Below the pieces are notes generated by a model that searched no databases, was not told where the DNA came from, and saw only the letters and a list, made by a program, of their open reading frames with translations. From the UHGV virus genome UHGV-1439128: a stretch of 18,841 nucleotides of DNA. One strand, written 5' to 3'. Source of the stretch: a virus. This document shows, one piece after another, positions 106 through 17,988 of this stretch. Every line of letters begins with the position of its first letter. Position 1 is the stretch's first letter. Both the position numbers and the translations under genes were made by a program.

Positions 106-3100
106 TTAAGCGGCGTCGCCAGGATATGTGGCGTCGTCGTAAGCATATTTGCCTGGGTGATACTGAATGGCTGTTACCTGACTGATCCCGTCATTACCCG
201 GAGTTATCTCTCCAATCAGCGCGTCATACGGCACACGGACAGAGGAGCAGAACAGCAGGCGCGGTTGCTCAATGCACGGGTCGTTCATTACCCACAAATC
301 CGGCTCCAGCGATGCGCTGTACGGTACCGATATGGTGAAGTCATCAATACGTGTCAGGGTAAGCATTTCGGATGCGCGACCATCCTGGAGACGCATAATA
401 ACGCGCGGGTTTTCAAAAGACCAGTCAGGCTCCTCGCTGAGCGTCATGGTGATTTTGCTGCTGTCATACGTCATATCGGTAATCAGGCAGCTCAGCTGCT
501 GACCGCCAGGTATGTCATCAGCCATTACAATACGATCCATAAACTCATAACAGAGCGCATCCATTTCCGTTGAGGTCGTGTGCTGCAAGCGCTGCAGCTG
601 GTAGCCCAGCAACCGGCGCATGCCGATGCGGTAGGCCCGATCCTCATCCAGAACGCCATCCAATGCGTAACTCTCTATTTTCAGCGGCGTAGGGTTGCCT
701 GGCATGCGGCACTGCACGGTTTCTTCTGCCCAGGTGGTGCCGTTGATATAGGTCACGTCCACGCCGTCGTAATCGTCCTGTGACGGGGCTTTAAACGCGG
801 TCTGCAGTTCCTCGGTGGTTTCCTGTGGGGTGATCATGCCTACCCAGGGTTTAATGCCTTCCCTGCCGGCAGAAGCCAGGCCGTCAGACAGCAAGAAATA
901 GCCCATCCCGGCGTTGGTGATTTTCTGCAGTATCTCAAGGGCTGACTTACTCTCACCGCTCGCCCAGTCGAACTTCTCCCCGCGGGGCGTCCAGTAGGTT
1001 TGCTCCAGCGCATCAATCGCCGCCGTGTCAATCTGGCTGGTCGTGAACCCCAGCGACTCCAGCACATGGTAAAGCGCCCCGCTGATGCTCCGCGCCGTTC
1101 TGCCGCCGCTGTAAATCCGGGTTGGTGTGACACTTATCCGGCGATCGGACATGGCCGCCAGGCGATTCCCTGTGCGCACGGTCAGCGCCATGGTGGTGAC
1201 TCCGTCGTACTTCGTGGGGCGCTTTCTCAGCCGGGAGCGCAGCGCCTGCCAGAAGACCTGGTCACGCGTGCTGCCACCTTTAACCGTTTCAGTGCGGCGC
1301 ATACGGATCTCATACTGACCGGGTGAGACGCTGTAGCGATGCGTAAACCCAATCTGGTTTTCGGTGCTGCGGGAATAGAACGGAGACTGCTGCTGCCAGG
1401 CGGTGGTACCAACCTTGCGATACTGGATCACCAGGCGCACGGGCATGGAGCGCTTGTTACCTTTATCGGTGTAGCGAACCAGCCCGCTCTGGAAGTTGAT
1501 GTTCACTTCGAATGCGTCCATGGTTTCGCCGTCGGGGCAGGCGAGGAACGGCCCCACCCATTCATAATCGTCGCTGACGCCAGTAACGGTCGCGTCCAGA
1601 AGGGTTCGCTCAGTGAATCCGGGCCACGATAGTTCTGGCGTCGTGATGGTCTCACCGCCAGGTCCGGTGGTGACTGCAATCCTCTCAACCGTGACCGTCT
1701 GGCTGTCCACGTCGGTGATCCGGAACTGATTGCCAGCCAGCCCCAGAGAGAACCGCTGGATGCCTTCCGGCAGACCGGTGAATGGCGTGCCAGTGGCGCT
1801 ATTGTAGGCCAGGGTAATGTGCGCCCTCACTTCCGCAGTGCCGCCAGTTGATTTCACGCCAGCCGTATTAACCGGAGCATCACCGAACACAGCAACGGGT
1901 AACGGGCTGTTCGTAATGGACCCGCCAGCATAGGGGCTGCTGGCCTCGCCAATTTCAAGCCGCCCACTGTTATCGCGCGCGACCAGGCCGGAACCGGACA
2001 ATTGCGAGGTGATCGAGGAAACCAGCCCTGACATGGTGACATAGTTGGTCACCAGCGATACCGGGTAAGTCGTGCCCTGCCAACTGATGCTGAACGTCAC
2101 AGGCGTGGTGCTGAAATCGTAGGTCGTCGGCGCTGCACTGGCTGTGATTCTGGCGGCGCTACCGCCTACCCCCGGCACCGCCGGAACGCCAGGGGCGTAG
2201 CTGGCGATCACCAGATCGTAGTCGTTGCCGTTATAGTTCAGGGATACTGGCATGCCGACCACTGGTGCCAGTTCCTCTACTCCGCCATAAATCACGCTGT
2301 AACCGCCGGACGACACGACCGTATAGGAGTTTGGTGCCAGCACGGTGATCACCGTTCCGACCGTCCAGGACGGCGGGATCTCCTCATCCCCAGACGACGA
2401 TACGTCAACCAGCGTGATGGAGTTTCCGGACACGACCAGCGCATCAGCGATAATACTGACCGTCTCCGGGCCGCTTGAGCCCAGGTCCAGCCCGGCGGTA
2501 CCGGAGCCGGTATTGCCGACCTCTGGTGAGTTGAACCAGTTTTCAGTGCGCGTGTCGCCGGATACCGTGGCGCCAGGCGGGTAGAGGGTGTAACGCACGT
2601 CCGTACCGAAAGCAGAGATTGGCGTATTACCGATCCGGATATCGGACTGGTTAATCACCATGTCCCCGACACCCACGCACAGAAACATGCTGGTTTCCAT
2701 GCTGGTCTCGTTGACGAACCGGCTAACCGGCTGCACGACGTAATCAGGCCAGACGCGATATTTGCCGAAGATTTCCCGGATGGGGTCTCCCAGCTTCGCC
2801 GCGTTCGCTTTTGCCGGGTTGAGGTCAATCTGGTCGCCGCTGGCCGCCTGGGCACCGCCGCCGCCAGCCTGAGACATTGTGCTCATCATGTAGATGCTGT
2901 ACGCAGCAGAGGCGACGGCTACGCTGACGGCAACCCAGATCGCGATTTCTGCGCCGGTACCGTACGGCACCGGATACATCCTGACGTCGGTTTCTCGCTT
3001 GATAACGCACAGTGGCCACTCTGCCGCCGGGACGGGAACGCCGTCGATTTCAACCGCGACCGGGTGCTGCTGATCCGGTGTCCAGTCCTTCACGTTCTGC

Positions 3101-3189
3101 GTAAACCAGGTGCTGAGGGTCATCGTTTCGTGTTCGTGCTTTTCCAGCGGTTCGCCCGGCAAGCGGGATGGATAGATTCGGATCGTCAC
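106..3189 (-). CDS. Host-specificity / central tail tip protein (J-like, TipJ-type), 1027 aa
   Basis: Very long ORF at the distal end of the tail module, after the tape measure and three small tail-tip genes; 4-nt ATGA overlap with the upstream gene; Gly/Thr/Ser/Val-rich beta-type composition typical of tail tip proteins. Family assigned from position and composition, not from a search. Confidence 0.75.
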   Translation of the reverse strand: MTIRIYPSRLPGEPLEKHEHETMTLSTWFTQNVKDWTPDQQHPVAVEIDGVPVPAAEWPLCVIKRETDVRMYPVPYGTGAEIAIWVAVSVAVASAAYSIYMMSTMSQAGGGGAQAASGDQIDLNPAKANAAKLGDPIREIFGKYRVWPDYVVQPVSRFVNETSMETSMFLCVGVGDMVINQSDIRIGNTPISAFGTDVRYTLYPPGATVSGDTRTENWFNSPEVGNTGSGTAGLDLGSSGPETVSIIADALVVSGNSITLVDVSSSGDEEIPPSWTVGTVITVLAPNSYTVVSSGGYSVIYGGVEELAPVVGMPVSLNYNGNDYDLVIASYAPGVPAVPGVGGSAARITASAAPTTYDFSTTPVTFSISWQGTTYPVSLVTNYVTMSGLVSSITSQLSGSGLVARDNSGRLEIGEASSPYAGGSITNSPLPVAVFGDAPVNTAGVKSTGGTAEVRAHITLAYNSATGTPFTGLPEGIQRFSLGLAGNQFRITDVDSQTVTVERIAVTTGPGGETITTPELSWPGFTERTLLDATVTGVSDDYEWVGPFLACPDGETMDAFEVNINFQSGLVRYTDKGNKRSMPVRLVIQYRKVGTTAWQQQSPFYSRSTENQIGFTHRYSVSPGQYEIRMRRTETVKGGSTRDQVFWQALRSRLRKRPTKYDGVTTMALTVRTGNRLAAMSDRRISVTPTRIYSGGRTARSISGALYHVLESLGFTTSQIDTAAIDALEQTYWTPRGEKFDWASGESKSALEILQKITNAGMGYFLLSDGLASAGREGIKPWVGMITPQETTEELQTAFKAPSQDDYDGVDVTYINGTTWAEETVQCRMPGNPTPLKIESYALDGVLDEDRAYRIGMRRLLGYQLQRLQHTTSTEMDALCYEFMDRIVMADDIPGGQQLSCLITDMTYDSSKITMTLSEEPDWSFENPRVIMRLQDGRASEMLTLTRIDDFTISVPYSASLEPDLWVMNDPCIEQPRLLFCSSVRVPYDALIGEITPGNDGISQVTAIQYHPGKYAYDDATYPGDAA

Positions 3190-3566
3190 TGGTAATACTC
3201 CACGCGGACAAAACGGCGCACAAACCGCGCCAGCGGCAAAAAGGTTACGTTAGTGCGGGGATTGCACTCTGCGGCGCGCAGCTGGCCATTAATCTCGACA
3301 ACGATGGCAACGTGTGTCACGACTGAGCCGGAATAACAGGCGATACCCGCGCCCGGGGCCGGTTCACATCGCGACAGGCCAGCCATCAGTCCGCGCGCTT
3401 CCCGATCGAGGCCGTTATCATCCTTCGTCACTCCGGCGAAATCAGGCCACGGCGTCAGGCCAAGATCGCGCCTGATTTCATTGACGATGCCAAAGCAGTC
3501 CAGCGCGGGGTAAGCGCGCCCTCCCTTCTGCCACTCGACAGAACGGTATTTATCAGGATTGAACAT
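3186..3566 (-). CDS. NlpC/P60 (C40) peptidase-like minor tail protein, 126 aa
   Basis: Contains 'DCFGIV' (candidate catalytic Cys) and downstream 'VTHVAIVV' (candidate His), matching the NlpC/P60 Cys...His pattern; sits where lambda K-like tail peptidases sit, directly before the host-specificity gene. Confidence 0.6.
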   Translation of the reverse strand: MFNPDKYRSVEWQKGGRAYPALDCFGIVNEIRRDLGLTPWPDFAGVTKDDNGLDREARGLMAGLSRCEPAPGAGIACYSGSVVTHVAIVVEINGQLRAAECNPRTNVTFLPLARFVRRFVRVEYYQ

Positions 3567-3575
3567 GGTGATTCC

Positions 3576-4064
3576 CTATTGCAGGTAACGTAGTCCGGGG
3601 AATAGTGGGAGCGTATAGCGAAATCTGGGCCACGCCGTATCGAGGATGTTCATGTAGCCAGCGGTGATTTGCACTTCCGTTGCGGTCCATGAGCCCTCTT
3701 TAATAGCCAGGGTGAATGGCGGAGAGGCAGGTGCCGACAAATCGGTGGAAATATAACGTCGAAAGGTCAAAGAGGCATTGCTGAGGTTGTCGAGTGCATT
3801 ACGGATTGCAGTCGATACCACACCGTCGATATTGCTGATGGCGAACTTGAGATCCTGAGTTCCATCGGAATTGCGTGCCGGCAGCGCTACATCAATGGCA
3901 GAGCCGGTGAAAGTGGCTTGCGCTCCGGTTTCAAGGGTAACAGTAATATCATCCCATCCGCGGGTCAGCCAGTAGCTCTGGCCGCCAACATTAATCTGCA
4001 GGGTATCAAGTATGACCTCTTCGCCAGAGGAGGCATAAAGTCGTTTCAGCACGGAACTGGTCAT
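3576..4064 (-). CDS. Minor tail / tail tip assembly protein, 162 aa
   Basis: ORF between tape measure and host-specificity genes; ATGA overlap with the upstream 157-aa gene; 9-nt gap to the next gene. Exact family not determinable by eye. Confidence 0.55.
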   Translation of the reverse strand: MTSSVLKRLYASSGEEVILDTLQINVGGQSYWLTRGWDDITVTLETGAQATFTGSAIDVALPARNSDGTQDLKFAISNIDGVVSTAIRNALDNLSNASLTFRRYISTDLSAPASPPFTLAIKEGSWTATEVQITAGYMNILDTAWPRFRYTLPLFPGLRYLQ

Positions 4065-4534
4065 GCTTCTGGCCCCTCCTCATTTAACGCAAAATCGAAG
4101 ATGTCAGATCCGGCCACCAACTCAGGAAAGAATCCCCAACCAGGCGGTAGCAAAGGTCGCTCCCACAATTCCAGCTGTGCACTGAAGCGCCAGTATTTAG
4201 GTGGCACCAGGGTCGGGCCCTCATAGGCATCATCGGTAAACCGACATTTATAGGTTTGCTGACAACCAAGTGGCGTCTGCAGCCTCATCAGAAACCACGC
4301 AGCACCATCCGTAAGCACATCACGAAACCAGGATTCAAACAGCTGCGCCTGGTTATTTTTCGTGAAAATCCAGTTCACGGTGGCGATCGTTGGCGTTGAC
4401 GTGTACTTGCGCCGTTGTCGTGAACGGCCTGAAGTTGCTTGCGTTCTCTGTAGAGGGCTGACAGGTTTAAAACCATAGCCATCCTGAAGTGGCATCGGCA
4501 GATAATCGTGCGGGTACGATGCTAAATCCGCCAT
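4061..4534 (-). CDS. Minor tail protein (distal tail / M-like position), 157 aa
   Basis: Start ATG at 4534..4532 overlaps the tape measure stop by 1 nt (TAATG); AGGAGG lies 8 nt upstream; first gene after the tape measure. Confidence 0.55.
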   Translation of the reverse strand: MADLASYPHDYLPMPLQDGYGFKPVSPLQRTQATSGRSRQRRKYTSTPTIATVNWIFTKNNQAQLFESWFRDVLTDGAAWFLMRLQTPLGCQQTYKCRFTDDAYEGPTLVPPKYWRFSAQLELWERPLLPPGWGFFPELVAGSDIFDFALNEEGPEA

Positions 4535-7500
4535 TATGATTGCCTCCTGTTCGGATACATGGATTTCAAGGCTCGGCCAAAGTCATTGTCAGGTTTGACA
4601 ACCTGGGCGGCCATTTCTTTACGGATTGAAACTGCCAACTGTCGGTTTCGCTGGTCAATCGCCATCAGCGTTGCGTCGTCAGGTTTGCCTGTGAATGAAT
4701 TTTGGATGTGAAAGGTCCCACCAGCAGAAGCCTGCCGGGACTGCTGAACCCTCTCCAGGGTTGCGTCCAGTTTGGCCGACGTGCTGGCAGTAACTACTCG
4801 CTCCCCTTTTTGCAGCAACCAGGTTCCAGTTTCCGGCACACGGTCAATCCCATCATGCGCCATGCCAGCGAGCGATTGCCCGGCGATCATCGCTACTGAT
4901 GCGTAGCCGACAGCGCGGATTGCTGTGGCCGCAGGTATCCCCATAATAAGGCCGCCTTCCGCCATAGCTTTAGTTGCTGCAAGCTCGGTGTTGATCACGG
5001 CCTGCGCCATAGCGGCCGCCTTGCTGGCGATGAATAGCGTTTTATAGGCGATACTGCCTTCCTGTCCGATGCTCTGTAGCATCTGCGCTGACTGACCCGC
5101 CAGGTCAGAGAACATGGCCAGGCTGGCAGTTGTGTATCCCGCCTGAATGCTCTCTAATTGCGAAGCATTCTGCTTATTGATTTCAGCGACACGGTCTGCA
5201 TAGGTTTGCTCGTTGATCTCCTTTTGATCGAGCAGCTCTTTCTGCATTTCCAATTGAGTGTCGTACCATTTTGCCAGTTCCTTCTGCGCATCAGCGACAC
5301 GTATAAGTTCGCCGCTGGCACCACCGACGGAAGAATCGATACCGCCAAACTTCGGCGCTTCCTGAACTGAAGCTTTCGAGATGCGCTCCATGGTCTTACG
5401 GTATTCTTCGGTCGCTGGCGCGGCATCGCGCAGCAACTTAATACGTTCCCGAGTGGTGTTTAGCAGCGCCTCTTCTGGTTTCAGCAGATCTTCATTCAGG
5501 GATTTCAGGCGCTCAACCGCGTTGAGGTGATCAAGCGCTGCGGAGTTACGCAGCAGTTCTGCCTTTTGGCTTTCAGTTAAAGCGGCTAACTCCCCTCGGG
5601 TAACCTGATATTTGGTTTTGGCGAGATCGGTGCTTTGCCCGGAGAGAGCGATCTGCTCTTGCTGCTGGCTGATGAGACGCTTGTAAGTTTCTTCCAGCTT
5701 CTCAGATGCTTTTTGCTCGTCAGATTTGGGCGTTTTTTTCTGAGGTTTGCTGGCCTCGTTGTTGCGCCAGGCTTCCAGGCTTGTGCCGATGTAATTCTGT
5801 CGAGCAGTCTGGAACTCGGGATCGTTGGTGAGGCCAAGAGCATCAGCAGAAAACCCAAGGCGCGCTCGCTCGCGCGCTTCGCCTTTGAGTTTTGACAGCT
5901 CCAGGTCCTGCCTTGCCTTCTCTAAAGCATCAGCCTGCTTGCCGCTAATTTCAGCCTGTGGCATTCGCATCGGAACGGCGGCAAGCCCCTGTCGCGCTAT
6001 CAGTAAACTATTGCCCAGCCCCAGCAGGCGGTTAAATTCCGTGTGCTGTCCATTCATCATCAGCAGTGACTGGTAGGCTGCATTCTGCTCGGCGGCCTGC
6101 TGGCGAATTAAAGCAACCCTGCGGTTTTCAAGTCCCTCAAGCACACTTTGAATGTCCTGAGATTTTGCCTGCATCTGGCCCAACCGCTCTTGCTCGACTG
6201 CCAGAGCCGCGGTGGCATTTTCTAACCCCCGTGTGGCCGTTTCTACAGAAGTTAAGTGGTTGATCATGAAGCCACCGCTGGTTGTCGGTCCAGGGTTGGC
6301 TAGCACATACTGATAACCAGCAATTTCTTCCTTAAGGCTTTTCACCTTAGATGACTGAACATCAACCAAACGGTTTTGCTCATCCAGAGCCTGCCGGGTT
6401 TTGGCCTGATTGTCGGTGGTTTCAGGAAGGCTGAGGTTCTTTGTGCTGGCGCGAACCTCTTCGATGGTGGATGCGTATTCCTGTGCGGATCTACGAGCCT
6501 GCTCCTGGTTTTGGTACATGGTATACCATGCACCCGCGCCAAGCATGACCAGGCCCGGCACTCCACCGATCAGACCCAGCGCGCCACCCATCAGCCGCGA
6601 TCCAACGGCTGTCACGTTATTCAAAGCCCCTTGCGCGGCAGTCCTGGCGGCAATATTACGCCCCAAAGATTGCTGAGCTGCTGAAAGACGCTTTTCCGCT
6701 GCAGCTTGAGCATCAGTACCGCGTGCGGCAACCACCGCCTGTTGTGCGCGATACACAGCCGCGCGAGCTCGCGCCGTAGAAATCTGAGTACCGCGCACTT
6801 GGGCTTCGGCCAAAGCAACTTCGCTTTTTGCTGCGTTCAACACGCCAGCAGTCGCTGATGCGGTGCCGGATACAATGCCACCAAGATATCTCGCCAGACC
6901 AACGGCAACCAGTGCACCTGCTGCAGTTGCCACTGAATCAATATTTTCGGCCAGGGAGTCGAGTCCGCCAACCAGGGAGCTGGTCGCACCGCTCGCCTGG
7001 TTGGCGCCGCCAACCCAGGCCATAAAGGCGTTTTCCACACGTTGCACTGAAGCCGCGACGGTCGCGCCCATCTGGGCACCCTCAGTTTGTACCCTGGATA
7101 GCTGACCGAGCAAAGCTGGCATTACAGTGTTTGCCGTAAGTTGCCCCGCTTCTGCCATCGCGCGCAACTGCCCGACATTAACGCCAAGGCCATCAGCCAG
7201 CGCCTGAGCGAACCTCCCTCCGTTTTCCATGATAGAGTTGAACTCATCCCCGCGCAGCACACCTGACGCCATAGACTGGCCGAACTGGGTGATCACCGCA
7301 GAGGCTTCACTCGCACCGGCACCAGAAAGTCGGAGTGTTGTGGCCACCAGCTCAGTAACCTTTGCAGTATCGGATGCTGTATAGCCCAACTGCTTAAGCG
7401 ACGATGACATGCGCGAGAACATGTTGGTATTTGCCTCTACGCTTGTTCCCGTGCGCTGGCTAATATCCATCAGTACACGCTGGTTCTGAGTGAATTCTTC

Positions 7501-7815
7501 GGCGCTGCCCGAGGCAAGTTTCAGGCGGCTATTGAGCTGAGTCCAGGTATCGGCATAGTTGATCAGCTGTTGGGTTGCGAACGCACCAGCAAAAGCCCCA
7601 CCCAAACCCATTGCTGCAGATTTTGTTTCATTGAGTTGAGCCGACACCTCGGCCAGGGCTGTGCGGGTATCTCGCGAAGCGGCCGCAGCCTGCCGTCCGC
7701 CGTTCTGCATGGTTTTGTAGTAGTCACTTCCCATGCGTGAGGCGCGGGCAATCTCTGACTGAAACGACTGGGAGTTTGCTGAGATTTTTATAATCAGTTC
7801 ACGCAGAGTTGCCAT
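4534..7815 (-). CDS. Tail tape measure protein, 1093 aa
   Basis: Very long Ala/Gln/Glu/Leu-rich, predicted coiled-coil protein with an internal Gly-rich hydrophobic segment (GGALGLIGGVPGLVMLGAGAW); located just downstream of the frameshifted chaperone pair, the conserved tape measure position. Confidence 0.85.
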   Translation of the reverse strand: MATLRELIIKISANSQSFQSEIARASRMGSDYYKTMQNGGRQAAAASRDTRTALAEVSAQLNETKSAAMGLGGAFAGAFATQQLINYADTWTQLNSRLKLASGSAEEFTQNQRVLMDISQRTGTSVEANTNMFSRMSSSLKQLGYTASDTAKVTELVATTLRLSGAGASEASAVITQFGQSMASGVLRGDEFNSIMENGGRFAQALADGLGVNVGQLRAMAEAGQLTANTVMPALLGQLSRVQTEGAQMGATVAASVQRVENAFMAWVGGANQASGATSSLVGGLDSLAENIDSVATAAGALVAVGLARYLGGIVSGTASATAGVLNAAKSEVALAEAQVRGTQISTARARAAVYRAQQAVVAARGTDAQAAAEKRLSAAQQSLGRNIAARTAAQGALNNVTAVGSRLMGGALGLIGGVPGLVMLGAGAWYTMYQNQEQARRSAQEYASTIEEVRASTKNLSLPETTDNQAKTRQALDEQNRLVDVQSSKVKSLKEEIAGYQYVLANPGPTTSGGFMINHLTSVETATRGLENATAALAVEQERLGQMQAKSQDIQSVLEGLENRRVALIRQQAAEQNAAYQSLLMMNGQHTEFNRLLGLGNSLLIARQGLAAVPMRMPQAEISGKQADALEKARQDLELSKLKGEARERARLGFSADALGLTNDPEFQTARQNYIGTSLEAWRNNEASKPQKKTPKSDEQKASEKLEETYKRLISQQQEQIALSGQSTDLAKTKYQVTRGELAALTESQKAELLRNSAALDHLNAVERLKSLNEDLLKPEEALLNTTRERIKLLRDAAPATEEYRKTMERISKASVQEAPKFGGIDSSVGGASGELIRVADAQKELAKWYDTQLEMQKELLDQKEINEQTYADRVAEINKQNASQLESIQAGYTTASLAMFSDLAGQSAQMLQSIGQEGSIAYKTLFIASKAAAMAQAVINTELAATKAMAEGGLIMGIPAATAIRAVGYASVAMIAGQSLAGMAHDGIDRVPETGTWLLQKGERVVTASTSAKLDATLERVQQSRQASAGGTFHIQNSFTGKPDDATLMAIDQRNRQLAVSIRKEMAAQVVKPDNDFGRALKSMYPNRRQS

Positions 7816-7829
7816 TCAACTATCCCCGG

Positions 7830-7854
7830 AAATAGAAAACCCCGCATTGCGGGG
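7830..7854 (-). terminator. Intrinsic terminator-like hairpin between tail chaperone and tape measure genes
   Basis: Minus-strand RNA reads CCCCGC-AAU-GCGGGG (6-bp GC stem) followed by UUUUCUAUUU; lies in the 65-bp gap between the chaperone stop (7881) and tape measure start (7815). Confidence 0.5.
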
Positions 7855-7880
7855 TCTGGATTACTAAGTAAAGATGTAAA

Positions 7881-8551
7881 TCATCTGGCGGCTTCCATAA
7901 ATGCAGCTTCCAGACTTGCGAAAGGATCGTTGGTGCTGACCTCTTCAGCATCGCCCGTCCACTGAATGACCGCTTCATCTATCGGCACTTTGACGCCTTG
8001 CGCCCCATAGATTGCCGAAACGAGCTGGGCATTATGAATGTCGCCCCGGACATCCCCGACCGGGCTGGTACGATCGTATTCAGCCCACATCAGTAATTCA
8101 CTGGAAGCCATGGTTTGGCGCAACTCCGCCAGGGTACGCCCCATCCTCAGAGCCAGCGCCATCAGAAACTTCATGCCCGGCGTTGCTACTTTTTTTTGGC
8201 GTCGTCACTGCTGGTTATCAGATCCAGAGCCTGCTTCAGCAGTCGGGAGTGAACCGGGCCGTATACGCCCTGCACCTCTTCGGCATCTTCAGGCGTAAAA
8301 ACAGGCTCCTGATTTTCGTCACAGACCACATCGATAAACAGCGTCACGTCGGCGCGCAGGTTACGCATGGCCTTTTCAGAGACGGAAAGCTCTTCATCGC
8401 TGTCTTTAACGATCTCTTGCCAGCGAAGCCATGCTTCTGCTGATGGCTCACGCAGAATTACCTTGGCACCGCCCCACTCTTTGACGGCTTCAGTTTTATT
8501 GCGGAAGCCGGACAAACGAGCCAGTGCCACCTCACGAATGTTTTTACCCAT
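7881..8551 (-). CDS. Tail assembly chaperone frameshift fusion (lambda GT-like), about 223 aa
   Basis: The 97-aa ORF 7881..8174 lies in the -1 frame relative to 8186..8551 and begins 5 codons after the slippery site; predicted product is ...DDAKKK-VATPG-MKFLMALALRMG.... The arrangement matches the conserved G/GT frameshift of long-tailed phages. Confidence 0.65.
8186..8551 (-). CDS. Tail assembly chaperone (lambda G-like), 121 aa
   Basis: Between major tail and tape measure genes; acidic protein ending ...DDAKKK followed by TAG; its last codons form the slippery heptamer A AAA AAG. Confidence 0.75.
   Translation of the reverse strand: MGKNIREVALARLSGFRNKTEAVKEWGGAKVILREPSAEAWLRWQEIVKDSDEELSVSEKAMRNLRADVTLFIDVVCDENQEPVFTPEDAEEVQGVYGPVHSRLLKQALDLITSSDDAKKK
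8189..8195 (-). other. Candidate -1 programmed ribosomal frameshift site (A AAA AAG)
   Basis: Minus-strand mRNA reads GCC AAA AAA AAG TAG. A -1 slip on A_AAA_AAG continues as GTA GCA ACG CCG GGC ATG AAG TTT CTG ATG..., exactly the frame of the downstream 97-aa ORF (7881..8174). Confidence 0.7.
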
Positions 8552-8583: not shown

Positions 8584-9297
8584 TTAACTAATTTCTACGT
8601 CACAAACAGTTGAAACAATGGTCGCGCCCACCGCATCGGTTACGATCACCTGACGATGGCCGCTTTCGTTCGCCTGCGCGTTATTGAAATCAATGGTGGT
8701 TGTGGTATTACCCAGACCGGAATGAGCGCCATTTTCATACCAGTCGAGTCGGTACGGCGGCACGCCCCCGGTAACCGCTACGCCAATAGAAAAGTTATCG
8801 CCAACCTCGGCAATTTTTGTAGCTGGAAGATCGGTAGTGAACGCCAGAGCAACAGCGGGCGGGGCCGTAATTCGGGTCGGTTTGCCTTTCAGGCGAAGCG
8901 CGAATGTAGCGGCAACCACACCGTTGGTACCGGAAGACCAAGTGTGCTGACGAACCTCAGCAAAAAACTGAAAACCAACACCGGATGGAAAAATGATGCG
9001 AAAGCCATACACAGTGTCATTATCATAAGCATCACGCAGTGCTGCCTGCCCTGGATTTTCTTTGAAGTTCCCTGAGAGGGACATCTCAGAAGCTGCCGCC
9101 AGCCCGTTGATGTTCTCCTTCTCATCGTAACAAAGCACAGTAACATCAATATCCTGTTTCTGCCCCGCAGTGAACTGCGCCTCCTTAAGCGTGCAGTCCA
9201 GCGGGAGGAAGGTGGCTGTGCCTACTGTAGTAGGAGTTGCAGGTAACGAAGTGATTTGTATCTTCGTGCCCTGCGATTTTTCGTACTGAGAGCTCAT
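8584..9297 (-). CDS. Major tail (tube) protein with C-terminal Ig-like domain, 237 aa
   Basis: Sits between head-tail completion genes and the tail chaperones; strong RBS (AGGAGA cagccg ATG); C-terminal segment with 'GGVPPYRLDWYENG' resembles the Ig-like domains appended to phage major tail proteins. Confidence 0.75.
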   Translation of the reverse strand: MSSQYEKSQGTKIQITSLPATPTTVGTATFLPLDCTLKEAQFTAGQKQDIDVTVLCYDEKENINGLAAASEMSLSGNFKENPGQAALRDAYDNDTVYGFRIIFPSGVGFQFFAEVRQHTWSSGTNGVVAATFALRLKGKPTRITAPPAVALAFTTDLPATKIAEVGDNFSIGVAVTGGVPPYRLDWYENGAHSGLGNTTTTIDFNNAQANESGHRQVIVTDAVGATIVSTVCDVEIS

Positions 9298-11038: not shown

Positions 11039-12259
11039 TTACGCGCCGCCACCAGCAGCAGGTGCGGTAAAGGAGCCGTAGATAAACGCTTCCGGACGTT
11101 TCACAGCCAGCGCCAGGCGCTCTTCGCAACGAATCGAGATCATGTTCTTCTCGAAGTCGTCGGCGTTCTCGGTGGAGATCACAACGTTGGCATCTTCACG
11201 ATCGAACAGCTGCGCCGCGGCGTTAAACGCACCAGTCAGGAACTTGCCCTGGAATGCTGCGGCCTCAGTGGCCACAACCGGCAGGCCCCAAAGAGTAGGA
11301 CCGGTCAGCGCCGCCGGGTTCGCCAGAATGTAGCGACCCAGCGTGTCTTTGGTGAGCTCAATCTTCGCCCAGTCAATGAAGTGCAGGACGTGGCCGGAAG
11401 CCGGGAAGCGCGCCAGCTGCGCCTGAAGCATCGCGAGACGGAGATCATCAATACCGTTCTGCTGCTCAACCGTAAAGGCAGCGTCGTATGCAGAAGCCTG
11501 TGGCACGATGCCTTTCAGGTGCGCACCGGTACCGTCGCCAAAGAGAATTTCCTGCTCTTCCACATATTTCAGGCCGTAACGCATCTCGGCGTCGATAGTG
11601 GACTGCAGCTGAGCGAAATCATCCAGGATCTGCTTGGACGCTTTGAACATATGCGCGATGGTAGTCACCGGGGTGATCTGCGTGGCGAACTGGATGTCGC
11701 TGTACGGCTTAGCTGTGCCTTCAGGCACAACCTTCGCCGCATTGGTAAAGCCAGTCTGCTGCACCCAGAAGATAGCCGGTGCAGAGGTGCGGCCCGGGGC
11801 AATCAGATCCCGGATGAAGAGACGCTGCTTCGGCGCGGTATCAATACCCGGCAGGCGCTGAGGCTCAACCACACCCGTTGCCACGTCAGTGGAGATCAGC
11901 GCAGCATTCACCGGAACGCTGACGCGCTTCCCGCCTTCAACGCTTGCCGCGAACGCTTTCAGCGCTTCACTGCTGATAACGGTCTGGCCAACGGTCTCGA
12001 TAATTTTTGCAGCGCTGGCCAGCGGCATCTGCGCTACCTGCTGCTCAATTTCACCCACTGAAGATTTCAGCGACTTCAGCGCATCGTTCAGCGCATTGTG
12101 TTCGGTGGCAATTTTATCCACCGCCTCTTTCGTCTGCGCAGACAGCTGACCAGAGCTTTTAGCCTCTTTCAGCGCGTCCTCGGCCTTCTGGCTGAAGGTG
12201 CCGGAAACTTCTTCCAGCTTCGCGGAGACTTTTTTCAGTAATTCGTTAACTTCAGACAT
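11039..12259 (-). CDS. Major capsid protein, HK97 fold, with N-terminal delta (scaffold-like) domain, 406 aa
   Basis: Follows the prohead protease gene; first roughly 100 aa are a charged predicted coiled coil (MSEVNELLKKVSAKLEEVSG...KSLKSSVGEIEQQ) like the HK97 delta domain; a terminator follows the gene, as expected for the most abundant structural protein. Confidence 0.85.
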   Translation of the reverse strand: MSEVNELLKKVSAKLEEVSGTFSQKAEDALKEAKSSGQLSAQTKEAVDKIATEHNALNDALKSLKSSVGEIEQQVAQMPLASAAKIIETVGQTVISSEALKAFAASVEGGKRVSVPVNAALISTDVATGVVEPQRLPGIDTAPKQRLFIRDLIAPGRTSAPAIFWVQQTGFTNAAKVVPEGTAKPYSDIQFATQITPVTTIAHMFKASKQILDDFAQLQSTIDAEMRYGLKYVEEQEILFGDGTGAHLKGIVPQASAYDAAFTVEQQNGIDDLRLAMLQAQLARFPASGHVLHFIDWAKIELTKDTLGRYILANPAALTGPTLWGLPVVATEAAAFQGKFLTGAFNAAAQLFDREDANVVISTENADDFEKNMISIRCEERLALAVKRPEAFIYGSFTAPAAGGGA

Positions 12260-12271
12260 GGTCTTTCCTTA

Positions 12272-13117
12272 TTAGCCGAACGCCGCCAGGGCGTCTTCAA
12301 GTTGTTTGAGATTGTCAGGGTTGATTTCTTCGGTAGCGTCCGGCGTACCATCATGACTGGCAGCAGCGCCTGGCTTGCTGCCGGATAAAGCTTTAAGGAG
12401 TTTTCGACGCTCCGATCGCGGCGTATTGGTTTTGGCCAGCAGGGCATCAAGCTTGCGCAGCGCAGCTGCCGGGCTTTCGTCGTCGTCGGCAATTTCATCA
12501 GCTGAAAGAAGGCTGTCAGCAAAGCCCTTCTCCACTGCTTCACTGCCGCCGATATAGGTTTCGCCGTCCATCATCCTGTCGACGGTGGCAGCATCAAGAC
12601 CGCTGCGAGCCTGGTAGATATCGCTCATCGCTTTATCAAACGGCTCCATATCCGCGGCGATCTGCGCCAGGTCATGGCGGTTGCCCATCGCGTAGACCCA
12701 GCAGTTGTGGATCATCAGGAACGCGCCGCGGCCGATCTGCACATCGTCACCGGCCATCGCGATAACCGATGCAGCAGACGCTGCCAGGCCGAGAACCTTA
12801 ACGGTTACCCTGCCTTCGTACTCGCGCAGCAGGTTGTAAATCGCCAGGCCTTCGAACATGTCGCCGCCCGGGCTGTTTATGTTAACCGTCACGTCAGCGC
12901 CGCCAAGCGAGCGCAGTGCGCCAGCTATGCGGCTGGCTGTCACCCCCTCCCCCCAGTAATCGGCGCCGATCACGTCGAAGATAGAAATGCTGTTGTCACC
13001 GTCCCGGGCGGCGCGGATGCCTCCGTTCCAGCGCTCCATTGCCGCAGCCGGCAGATCAGGTTTTTCGCGCGCAAAAGGTCGCCCCTCCGGCGCAGCCGGA
13101 AGGCTTTTAATCGTCAT
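12272..13117 (-). CDS. Prohead (head maturation) protease, ClpP/S49-like, with acidic C-terminal extension, 281 aa
   Basis: Motifs 'INSPGGDMFEGLAIYNLL', 'GLAASAASVIAMAG' (candidate Ser) and 'FLMIHNCW' (candidate His) fit the ClpP-family serine protease pattern; located between portal and capsid genes. Confidence 0.8.
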   Translation of the reverse strand: MTIKSLPAAPEGRPFAREKPDLPAAAMERWNGGIRAARDGDNSISIFDVIGADYWGEGVTASRIAGALRSLGGADVTVNINSPGGDMFEGLAIYNLLREYEGRVTVKVLGLAASAASVIAMAGDDVQIGRGAFLMIHNCWVYAMGNRHDLAQIAADMEPFDKAMSDIYQARSGLDAATVDRMMDGETYIGGSEAVEKGFADSLLSADEIADDDESPAAALRKLDALLAKTNTPRSERRKLLKALSGSKPGAAASHDGTPDATEEINPDNLKQLEDALAAFG

Positions 13118-13125
13118 GGATTCTC

Positions 13126-14430
13126 CTAAGCCGCTTTTTTCAGCGGTGACTGTTCGAAGGGAATATCGGGGAATACGTGGTTATGGACCTGCCGCAGAGC
13201 GAATGCCTGTGCGGCCTGGCTGTTCTGCTTCAGATCATCGAGCGGCGTCAGGTTGAGCTGCACCGTGTAAATATCGCCGCCCTCAATCGGTGGCATGTTC
13301 TCCAGGCGGCGCACGTCGTTACGGGACATCCAGCCGTTCTGCAGCGCACTGGTGTAGTAAGCAGCCCGTCCAGCGCTGTCGGCGCGCAGCAGGCCCTCAA
13401 CTGAGAACTCAGCAAAGAGGTCCTCTTCGCCATTCAGCAGGCAACGGGAGATCTCCTGCTCAATGTTCACCAGCAGCGGGCGCAGCGTATGGGTCAGGAA
13501 CTGGAGGTTCATTCCCTCGAGGCTCGACGCCCAGCTGCTTTGCTTTGATGTATGCCCGACCATAAACGGCGGCACGCGGAACCAGCGGCAAATTTCCTCA
13601 ATACTGAATGAGCGACTTTCCAGCATCTGGGCATCTTCAGGGTTCATGGTGACACCCTGATATTTCAGGCCGCCCTCAAGCACCATGATTTTTCCGGCGT
13701 TTTTGGAACCGGTAAACTTCGCCATATAACCGCGAAGTCTTTCCCGCTGATCTTCGTCCAGCGCATTGTCCGATGAGAGAAACCCGGAGCTTTGCAGGCC
13801 CTGTTCAAAAATCTTTGCAGCAGATTCTTCAACCGCCATCGCGGAGCCGATTACATCCCGACCCGTCCTCATCGGCATCATGCCGCAGACACCATCGAGG
13901 CCGAACCCACGGATGTGCATCAGGTTCTTTTCGGGAATAACGCGTTTCTTGCCATCCTCGGTGTACGTGTATTCCAGCCGCCCGGTATCAAGCCGCTTCA
14001 CCACCATGTTCTGGGGCAGCAGTGGCACCAGCGACACCAGCTTATTGCCGATAAACAGCTTCTCGACAAAGGCATTTCCGCGCAGGCAGATGCTGGCCAC
14101 CACCATCAACATAAAGCGCGACGGCGTCATTTCCAGATTGGGACGGCGACAAAGCACCTGGTATACCGGATGGTTCTGCGCCAGCTTGCGCGAGCCATCA
14201 GCCTGTCGGGTGTAAATCTTAACCGGCAGCGTGGACACCGACTCGCTCAGAAGCCGGACGCAGGCCCAGACGGCCGAAAGTTGGATCGCCTTATCTGCCG
14301 TGACCACCTTGCCGCTGCTGCTCGTGCCATACCACTCCTGCCAGAACGTTCCGGTAGTCAGGCTGATGGGCACGCCCAGCCAGTTGAGCAAGGCGCTTTT
14401 TACCTTGCCCGGCTGCTTACTTTTCTTCAT
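13126..14430 (-). CDS. Portal protein (HK97-family-like), 434 aa
   Basis: Start ATG overlaps the terminase large subunit stop (TGATG); size and position between terminase and protease match a portal protein. Confidence 0.8.
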   Translation of the reverse strand: MKKSKQPGKVKSALLNWLGVPISLTTGTFWQEWYGTSSSGKVVTADKAIQLSAVWACVRLLSESVSTLPVKIYTRQADGSRKLAQNHPVYQVLCRRPNLEMTPSRFMLMVVASICLRGNAFVEKLFIGNKLVSLVPLLPQNMVVKRLDTGRLEYTYTEDGKKRVIPEKNLMHIRGFGLDGVCGMMPMRTGRDVIGSAMAVEESAAKIFEQGLQSSGFLSSDNALDEDQRERLRGYMAKFTGSKNAGKIMVLEGGLKYQGVTMNPEDAQMLESRSFSIEEICRWFRVPPFMVGHTSKQSSWASSLEGMNLQFLTHTLRPLLVNIEQEISRCLLNGEEDLFAEFSVEGLLRADSAGRAAYYTSALQNGWMSRNDVRRLENMPPIEGGDIYTVQLNLTPLDDLKQNSQAAQAFALRQVHNHVFPDIPFEQSPLKKAA

Positions 14431-17508: not shown

Positions 17509-17988
17509 TTAAATGATTTGCCAGTCTTCAGCCATCAGGTCGCCAATGGATGGAACCCATGTAGCAAGGCGGTTCTGTGAGTTTTTCAATACAAGCGTGT
17601 CATTGAAAGTTGGCTCGCCAACATATTCGCCAAAGCCATAACCCAACGCAGACGCTAATTTTTCCCCTTTCACGAGATAAACAAACTGGTCTTTCCCATT
17701 CCATCCTGCCCGCTGCAAACTTTTGCCCTGTTTTAACGCTTCCATGGCAAGGCCGAAACTTAGTCCTGATACCGGACGATAAGCCTTTTCGAATACTTCT
17801 TTTGGACTCCAGCTAACGTAGCCATCAAAGCGATCGGTGTTAGGTTTTCCGCCATCCAGATATTCAACCAGATAGCCTTCGTCCTCGCCGTTTTCTCCGG
17901 CAGGAAGCTGCCAGCCACGAAAATCGTTATATGCCTGTCTCGTCATCGGAAAGGCGTTAATCAGTTTTACGCCAATATGCTGGGTCAT
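17509..17988 (-). CDS. Two-domain accessory protein; C-terminal half DUF2829-like (possible Tad2-like anti-defence sponge), 159 aa
   Basis: C-terminal half contains 'AMEALKQGKSLQRAGWNGKDQFVYLV' and ends '...GDLMAEDWQII', matching my recollection of DUF2829 signatures (ALKxGKKVxRxGWNGKG ... DLLAEDWEI); lower GC than neighbours; lies in the accessory slot between the lysis cassette and packaging genes. Confidence 0.55.
   Translation of the reverse strand: MTQHIGVKLINAFPMTRQAYNDFRGWQLPAGENGEDEGYLVEYLDGGKPNTDRFDGYVSWSPKEVFEKAYRPVSGLSFGLAMEALKQGKSLQRAGWNGKDQFVYLVKGEKLASALGYGFGEYVGEPTFNDTLVLKNSQNRLATWVPSIGDLMAEDWQII

Follow-up and report, generated by a model that had tools for sequence, protein, structure and literature searches.

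A tape measure protein with a conserved glycine-rich hydrophobic segment in an HK97-like enterobacterial prophage

Introduction

Predicted transmembrane segments have been described as a common feature of phage tape measure proteins (TMPs) (bioRxiv 10.64898/2026.03.06.709160; PMC5099701; PMC12617516). Phage HK97 depends on two host proteins for genome injection, the periplasmic chaperone FkpA and the inner-membrane protein PtsG, with which the TMP has been reported to interact. Its superinfection-exclusion protein, gp15, is said to block translocation by acting on the TMP. The TMP of phage lambda, gpH, is known to be cleaved to gpH*, a trans-envelope channel with predicted hydrophobic transmembrane stretches (PMC12617516). 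For the T4 TMP, a transmembrane segment has been assigned to density at the membrane (bioRxiv 10.64898/2026.03.06.709160), and hydrophobic region 1 of the TP901-1 TMP is essential. Here, we analyze an 18,841-nucleotide stretch of the UHGV virus genome UHGV-1439128 (hereafter, the window), in which one open reading frame (ORF) encodes a predicted TMP of 1093 amino acids (aa) with an internal Gly-rich hydrophobic segment.

The relationship between TMP length and tail length has been calibrated in several phages. A value of 0.15 nm per residue is attributed to Katsura and Hendrix in PMC5099701, where 0.145 nm per residue is given for that part of the TP901-1 TMP which contributes to tail length, the terminal domains not being counted. 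The lambda tail contains 31 gpV discs (PMC12617516) and is 150 nm long (PMC9022992), and the Pseudomonas phage JBD30 combines a TMP of 1158 aa with 45 discs and a tail of 180 nm (PMC11445458).

Results

Identification of the TMP

The TMP ORF occupies positions 4534..7815 of the window on the minus strand, where all features discussed below are located unless stated otherwise, and is predicted to be translated from an ATG start codon into a protein of 1093 aa (ORF list and translation). Two Pfam profiles match this protein far above their curated cut-offs. TMP_3 (PF20155; aa 82-272, window 7000..7572; E 2.6e-56, 190.8 bits against a cut-off of 41) constitutes the best-conserved N-terminal core, which is also delineated by NCBIfam and PDB alignments, and Phage_HK97_TLTM (PF06120; aa 395-687, window 5755..6633; E 2e-101, 339.5 bits against a cut-off of 24, profile positions 1-292 of 295) starts with the hydrophobic segment. 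PHROG 339, 'tail length tape measure protein', covers aa 1-1072 (E 9.5e-270), and the sole NCBIfam match is tape_meas_nterm (TIGR02675; aa 161-229, 73.4 bits against a cut-off of 21.35). The PDB TMPs 9occ_M and 8rk3_A, the sole phage TMPs returned by PDB sequence and profile searches, align with the TMP_3 region. An NCBI entry, 'tape measure protein [Escherichia coli]', is 100% identical to the window TMP, many entries from Citrobacter, Leclercia and Kluyvera are 95-97% identical, and the family as a whole comprises 19,843 cluster representatives at E<=1e-3.

An AlphaFold2 (AF2) monomer model of the full protein, built with a 22-sequence alignment, is 82% helix. Because of its low confidence (mean predicted local distance difference test score (pLDDT) 49.7, predicted template modelling score (pTM) 0.28), only the secondary structure was used; within the TMP_3 domain, the pLDDT is 60-83. 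Both profile matches, the gene order and the predominantly alpha-helical composition of this low-confidence model are those of TMPs of the TMP_3/Phage_HK97_TLTM type. Its domains, its place in the gene order and an identical, already annotated protein all identify the ORF product as a TMP, so that the 1093-aa TMP claimed in the original prediction is borne out, and the length of about 850 aa given there for lambda gpH also agrees with the actual 853 aa. We estimate a probability of about 0.85 that this ORF encodes the TMP of a temperate HK97-like siphophage (prophage) from an enterobacterium, which would act as a ruler during tail assembly and become membrane-active at injection.

Alternative coding or RNA features at window positions 6500-6600, where the hydrophobic segment is encoded, were considered and dropped: the overlapping plus-strand ORFs 6376..6684 and 6410..6676 and the nested minus-strand ORF 6342..6566 have no Pfam match, no Rfam family reaches its threshold in the whole window, and the base composition at the site is even and unremarkable.

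Comparison with characterized TMPs

HK97 gp16 is nearly equal in length to the window TMP (1089 aa), has the TMP_3 plus Phage_HK97_TLTM architecture in common with it and is 45% identical to it over aa 1-777 of the window protein, with a nearly identical core of the hydrophobic segment (GG.PG..MLGAGAWYTMYQ.QEQAR). The genes upstream are alike as well, including the gp10-like gene, the tail terminator, the tube protein bearing an immunoglobulin (Ig)-like domain and the G/T frameshift as annotated. However, the last ~315 aa of gp16 are unrelated to the window TMP, and HK97 possesses a lambda-like M/L/K/I/J tip as well as a moron, gp15, that separates T from the TMP gene, whereas the window encodes a DUF1833/TipJ tip and no moron. 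The window TMP is, thus, not a full-length orthologue of gp16, given that homology stops at aa 777.

The JBD30 TMP, gp46 (PDB 8RK3), is homologous over aa 41-459 of the query, the hydrophobic segment included, and likewise has no peptidase motif (PMC11445458), but this phage infects a different host and carries a baseplate with a pilus-binding apparatus. Because only the last 33 residues of gp46 are resolved, 8RK3 provides no structure for the segment. Lambda gpH has the role and the gene position in common with the window TMP, lacks lytic activity and has its C-terminal peptide docked in the tip, yet it is 240 aa shorter and shows no detectable similarity (best BLASTP E 3.2). Even so, gpH contains Gly-rich hydrophobic stretches at aa 113-131 and 696-714 that are analogous to that of the window TMP, and Gly-rich peaks are present in HK97 gp16, too. 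Predicted hydrophobic or transmembrane regions are also found, with no homology claimed, in the TP901-1 TMP, where infection requires them, and in T4 gp29, where they have been assigned to membrane-bound density; TP901-1 differs in its Gram-positive host and T4 in its contractile tail. Finally, T5 pb2 and the TMP of mycobacteriophage TM4 likewise act as tape measures and have a region proposed to be membrane-active, but carry peptidase or peptidoglycan-hydrolase motifs that are not detectable in the window TMP.

Searches of Pfam (E<=10), NCBIfam, PDB sequences and PDB profiles (E<=1) detected no peptidase, lysozyme or transglycosylase in the TMP, in agreement with the original prediction, which had noted no such motif; at E<=10, Pfam returned TMP_3, Phage_HK97_TLTM and three chance-level matches. 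The window TMP, accordingly, lacks the hallmarks of a wall-hydrolase TMP of the T5 pb2 or TM4 type. The nearest lytic candidate is a separate 126-aa ORF two genes downstream (3186..3566), with a sub-threshold CHAP/NlpC-P60-like match (E 6.6e-4) and no relative in the PDB. The RefSeq relatives of this gene are named 'CHAP domain-containing protein' or 'nitrite transporter', the latter of which looks like an annotation error.

A conserved Gly-rich hydrophobic segment

The peptide highlighted in the original prediction, GGALGLIGGVPGLVMLGAGAWYTMY, corresponds to aa 410-434 of the TMP (window 6514..6588, within 6500-6600). From the polar-free run, the hydropathy peak and conservation, we delimit the segment at aa 408-434, LMGGALGLIGGVPGLVMLGAGAWYTMY (window 6514..6594). 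These 27 residues include no D, E, K, R, H, N or Q, a run that was matched in only 96 of 20000 shuffles (0.5%), and the 19-residue Kyte-Doolittle (KD19) peak of 1.74 is the highest of the whole TMP. To assess conservation, the query was aligned with 92 representatives of at least 900 aa from 50%-identity clusters. The family-mean hydropathy in this alignment peaks at aa 412-430 (1.59), a polar-free run of at least 18 residues is found at the position of the segment in 82 of the 91 aligned representatives, and a GGx(x)G motif in 77 of them. The approximate family consensus, G.L-GL.GGP.GL, precedes a stretch of 12-15 apolar residues that gives way to charges. Given that both position and character are conserved, and that the run is rare in shuffles, the segment is a real, selected feature.

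The original prediction had described an internal Gly-rich hydrophobic segment as typical of the membrane-interacting region of TMPs, which fits both its conservation in 82 of 91 relatives and the published view that membrane segments are common in these proteins. The segment is the strongest hydropathy peak of the family, but not the only one. At least three further conserved hydrophobic patches, which had been missed, are present at aa 67-85, AAMGLGGAFAGAFATQQLI (window 7561..7617; family-mean KD19 1.22, with a peak in HK97 gp16 as well), aa 294-315, SVATAAGALVAVGLARYLGGIV (window 6871..6936; KD19 1.55 in the query, family mean 1.33; summed Hessa insertion energy +3.9 to +4.1 kcal/mol) and aa 956-986 in the C-terminal part (window 4858..4950; KD19 1.42-1.43, family mean 0.98).

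By analogy with the published systems, we lean towards a membrane role of the segment at aa 408-434 during DNA injection. After receptor binding, the TMP would be expelled from the tube through the opened tip, whereupon the segment, in a helix-break-helix configuration, and the other hydrophobic patches would partition into the host membrane. The membrane-inserted patches might then help to build the DNA conduit, as proposed for HK97 gp16, lambda gpH*, T4 gp29 and the TP901-1 TMP.

Several observations weigh against this reading, however. The Kyte-Doolittle peak is equaled in 35% of composition-preserving shuffles, such peaks being common in a protein that consists of 16% Ala and 10% Leu. The best 19-mer of the segment has a Hessa insertion energy of +3.35 kcal/mol and is, therefore, marginally hydrophobic. 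The GGVPG break in mid-segment leaves two arms of ~11-14 residues, each too short to span the bilayer as a straight helix. The segment has a pLDDT below 50 in the AF2 model, which predicts, at low confidence, a helix at 370-414, a break at 415-420 (IGGVPG) and a second helix at 421-459. Moreover, the membrane-contacting region of the TMP is not settled even for lambda (PMC12617516). The classical features of a spanning helix are, thus, mixed, with the hydropathy peak and the rare 27-residue run on one side and the insertion energy and the central break on the other, and in the model the segment looks more like a kinked helix or a hairpin than a canonical spanning helix.

The marginal insertion energetics are among the arguments for a role in assembly, in which the segment would provide a small-residue face for tight packing of TMP chains in the tube lumen or a binding site for the G/GT chaperones. 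The GxxxG-type spacing (G410/G414/G418 and G417/G421) is a classic helix-helix packing motif, the chaperones coat TMP chains and must keep them soluble (PMC9022992), and the predicted transmembrane helix of the T4 TMP is buried in a hydrophobic patch of a soluble dimer (bioRxiv 10.64898/2026.03.06.709160), which also implies that packing and membrane roles can coincide. However, the sequence turns sharply polar after the segment and contains aromatic W/Y residues there, as at membrane interfaces, the comparable hydrophobic regions of TP901-1 are required for infection, and gpH* is protease-resistant in liposomes and forms a channel (PMC12617516). The assembly role and the membrane role are not mutually exclusive, and we consider assembly an unlikely, albeit credible, explanation of the segment.

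The same central break could be accommodated by a helical hairpin that, like a fusion peptide, occupies a single leaflet and causes membrane perturbation or fusion, instead of a channel-spanning helix. Under the most specific version of this alternative, the segment GL.GG(V/P)PGL...WY..QNQEQ would be convergent with the influenza HA2 fusion peptide and would destabilise or fuse host membranes ahead of the tail tip. The GGVPG break does separate two short hydrophobic arms, and there is an ordered likeness between GGvPGLv..aWYtmyQNQEQ in the TMP and GGWPGLI..GWYGFQHQNEQ in HA2, with a pairwise local score of 64 against 23.5+-4.8 in 20000 shuffles; furthermore, fusogenic activity of T5 pb2 is reported in the title of Boulanger et al. 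2008. Nevertheless, in the PDB profile search, the match of TMP aa 396-504 to residues 323-431 of haemagglutinin 4fiu_A (from window 6514-6630 on) is non-significant at the database level (E 0.44), and the likeness is compatible with chance, given that it emerged from a search of 177,635 sequences. The WY..QNQEQ part is also limited to the HK97-like subfamily, whereas distant relatives keep only GL.GGP.G and the hydrophobic run. We regard both the hairpin and its specific convergence with HA2 as highly doubtful. Homology of the segment to haemagglutinin was rejected as unsupported, the likeness probably reflecting chance or convergence.

Predicted tail length

At 1093 aa, the window TMP is 28% longer than the 853-aa lambda gpH (1.28x). 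Applied to this length, the published ratios project, by arithmetic, a tube of 158-173 nm with 40-43 rings, and naive scaling of the 150-nm lambda tail gives ~190 nm. These calibrations make it very likely that the tail exceeds 150 nm, in line with the original prediction of a tail longer than that of lambda. In the corresponding assembly scenario, several TMP copies would be coated by the G/GT chaperones, with their C-termini fixed in the tip complex, and would serve as the ruler for polymerization of the 237-aa tube protein around them. At ~0.15 nm per residue, or ~26 residues per ring, this would result in a tube of ~160-175 nm with roughly 40-43 rings, compared with 31-32 in lambda. HK97 tails are probably longer than those of lambda; the literature searched provided no measured tail length for HK97 or a closer relative.

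The distribution of TMP lengths in close relatives resembles that expected of a ruler. A length of exactly 1093 aa is found in 50 of the 120 closest cluster representatives, pointing to purifying selection on length, and another 44 have 1155 or 1160 aa. Compared with the 1093-aa class, the longer class (the proteins compared include P0056, P0060, P0063 and P0081) has a 56-aa insertion after aa 360 (window ~6736) and a 19-aa insertion after aa 287 (window ~6955). Length variation in close relatives is confined to the latter site and, immediately downstream of it, to an Ala/Gln/Arg-rich spacer at aa 320-400 (window 6616..6858), which is predicted to be helical and accommodates the indels of close homologues. 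Both the clustering of indels at the spacer and the discrete length classes are as expected for a ruler, and the difference of 62-67 residues between the classes would mean about two extra rings.

Two findings run counter to a long tail. The least favorable calibration, the whole-protein ratio of TP901-1 (118 nm for 937 aa), yields only ~138 nm, and the TMP gene of one related E. coli prophage is fragmented. Together with the exclusion of terminal TMP domains from the measured length, these findings would be explained if the length rule failed here, that is, if the TMP were partly folded or not extended, or if the prophage were defective, so that the tail would not be longer than that of lambda or would be absent. 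However, the TMP ORF and ~20 neighboring late genes are intact, the exact length of 1093 aa recurs in 50 of the 120 closest representatives, and the homologous JBD30 TMP obeys the rule at 0.155 nm/aa (PMC11445458). Failure of the length rule, therefore, appears improbable.

The closest prophage identified in complete E. coli genomes (MDK9L1, L002 8618-11200) is the one in which the TMP is annotated as two incomplete pseudogene fragments, and this prophage is probably tail-defective.

A mosaic C-terminus and a likely tip anchor

The C-terminal third of the TMP, aa 778-1093 (window 4537..5484), is not HK97-like in BLASTP and tblastn comparisons, with a mosaic joint near aa 777. BLASTP similarity to HK97 gp16 ends at this residue, the C-terminal 316 aa have no significant match to HK97 gp16 or the phi467 TMP, and most phage tblastn matches to the TMP span aa 1-777 only. 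Instead, the C-terminal 316 aa are 30-49% identical to the TMP ends of Pseudomonas, Vibrio, Seurat/9g-like and D3 phages. Within this part of the protein, conservation across the family is highest in a 25-aa window at aa 983-1007, AGMAHDGIDRVPETGTWLLQKGERV (window 4795..4869), which has the top mean identity to the query among the 92 representatives and is invariant in close homologues; it loosely resembles 'IVHRGEFVF' of lambda gpH, a likeness that may or may not be meaningful.

The extreme C-terminal peptide, aa 1038-1085 (window 4561..4704), is a likely tail-tip anchor, by analogy and from a few cases. The TMP of Klebsiella phage ST101-KPC2phi6.3 resembles the window TMP in the N-terminal part and, at 44% identity, in the final ~48 residues, but differs from it across aa 778-1037, and its gene likewise precedes a DUF1833-type tip. 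The peptide has no match in the TMPs of phi467 or HK97, which have only the N-terminal part in common with the window TMP and whose genes precede lambda-like M and L genes. In these few cases, the end-peptide tracks the type of tip, which fits an anchoring role, and in both lambda (PMC12617516) and JBD30 (PMC11445458), only the C-terminal ~30 residues of the TMP have been seen docked in the tip. Judging by these alignments, the TMP is a mosaic of three parts: the ruler is of the HK97 type, the C-terminal third is foreign, and a short peptide forms the end.

Gene neighborhood

The window is one long minus-strand operon with the late-gene order of siphophages: a Rz-like spanin, a Tad2-like protein, an HNH endonuclease, the small and large terminase subunits, portal, a ClpP-type protease and an HK97-fold capsid protein, followed by DUF7210, connectors, a gp10-like protein, the tail terminator, the Ig-bearing tube protein, the G-like chaperone, T, the TMP and the tip module. 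The tail tube protein (8584..9297; 237 aa) has a C-terminal Ig-like domain and is identified by PHROG 158 (E 3.5e-66) along with weak Pfam tail-tube and Ig_3 matches. It is followed by the G-like tail assembly chaperone gene (8186..8551; 121 aa; Pfam Phage_TAC_1, E 1.5e-48) and by a T-frame extension (7881..8195, ORF 7881-8174; Pfam Phage_tail_T, E 6.3e-16) that is predicted to be produced via a -1 frameshift. A slippery heptamer, A AAA AAG, is located at 8195..8189 just before the G stop codon (G ends ...AKKK*), the -1 frame is open into T, and PHROG 14766 (224 aa) spans both the G and T ORFs; as read from these sequence signatures, the G/G-T chaperone arrangement is canonical.

The gap between T and the TMP gene is 65 nucleotides long (window 7816-7880) and contains no gp15-like gene. 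In Klebsiella phages, this slot, which is the position of HK97 gp15, holds a YebO-like moron (L003 6707-6940; L009 3207-3440), and in E. coli MDK9L1, it holds a zinc-ribbon protein (L002 11247-11582). At the other end of the TMP gene, its stop codon shares one base with the start codon (ATG) of the downstream 157-aa gene (PHROG 384; window 4534-4536), an overlap suggestive of coupled translation of the ruler and the first tip protein. The tip module (106..4534) encodes the 157-aa, DUF1833, 126-aa CHAP-like and 1027-aa TipJ-like proteins, as recognized by Pfam, PHROG and the RefSeq annotation of related E. coli prophages, and differs from the M-L-K-I-J set of lambda and HK97.

In several E. coli draft genomes (L004, L005 and L006; GCA_002510645.1, GCA_012990445.1 and GCA_012384935.2), identical TMP and tail genes are located behind another head module, with an S78 protease of 217 aa and a portal of 409 aa, compared with the ClpP-type protease of 281 aa and the portal of 434 aa in the window (head module, 11039-14430). 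The occurrence of an identical TMP and tip behind different head modules implies that the whole tail unit is a mobile mosaic block, with exchange of head and tail modules. Outside the morphogenetic genes, the 159-aa Tad2-like (Thoeris anti-defence 2) protein (window 17509-17988; Pfam E 6.4e-22, PHROG 872) is encoded between the lysis and the HNH/terminase genes and may serve in anti-defence.

Discussion

The identification of the window ORF as a TMP is correct but ordinary, as both the protein and its family have been described before and the prophage tail module around them is unremarkable. Public databases list the identical protein under its proper name, and textbooks or the current literature cover its family, the rule on length and the proposed membrane activity of a hydrophobic region, so that the main value of the analysis is a correct annotation.

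Beyond annotation, the natural 1093-aa and 1155/1160-aa classes offer a ready-made test of the length rule. The end-peptide, which is common to phages with DUF1833 tips and absent from those with lambda-like tips in the few cases compared, and the three-part mosaic organization of the protein illustrate where a ruler tolerates recombination. The segment at aa 408-434 is the most consistently hydrophobic, position-conserved element of thousands of proteobacterial TMPs, as sampled by the 92 aligned representatives, and is, for this reason, a rational target for mutagenesis aimed at understanding how siphophage DNA crosses the inner membrane.

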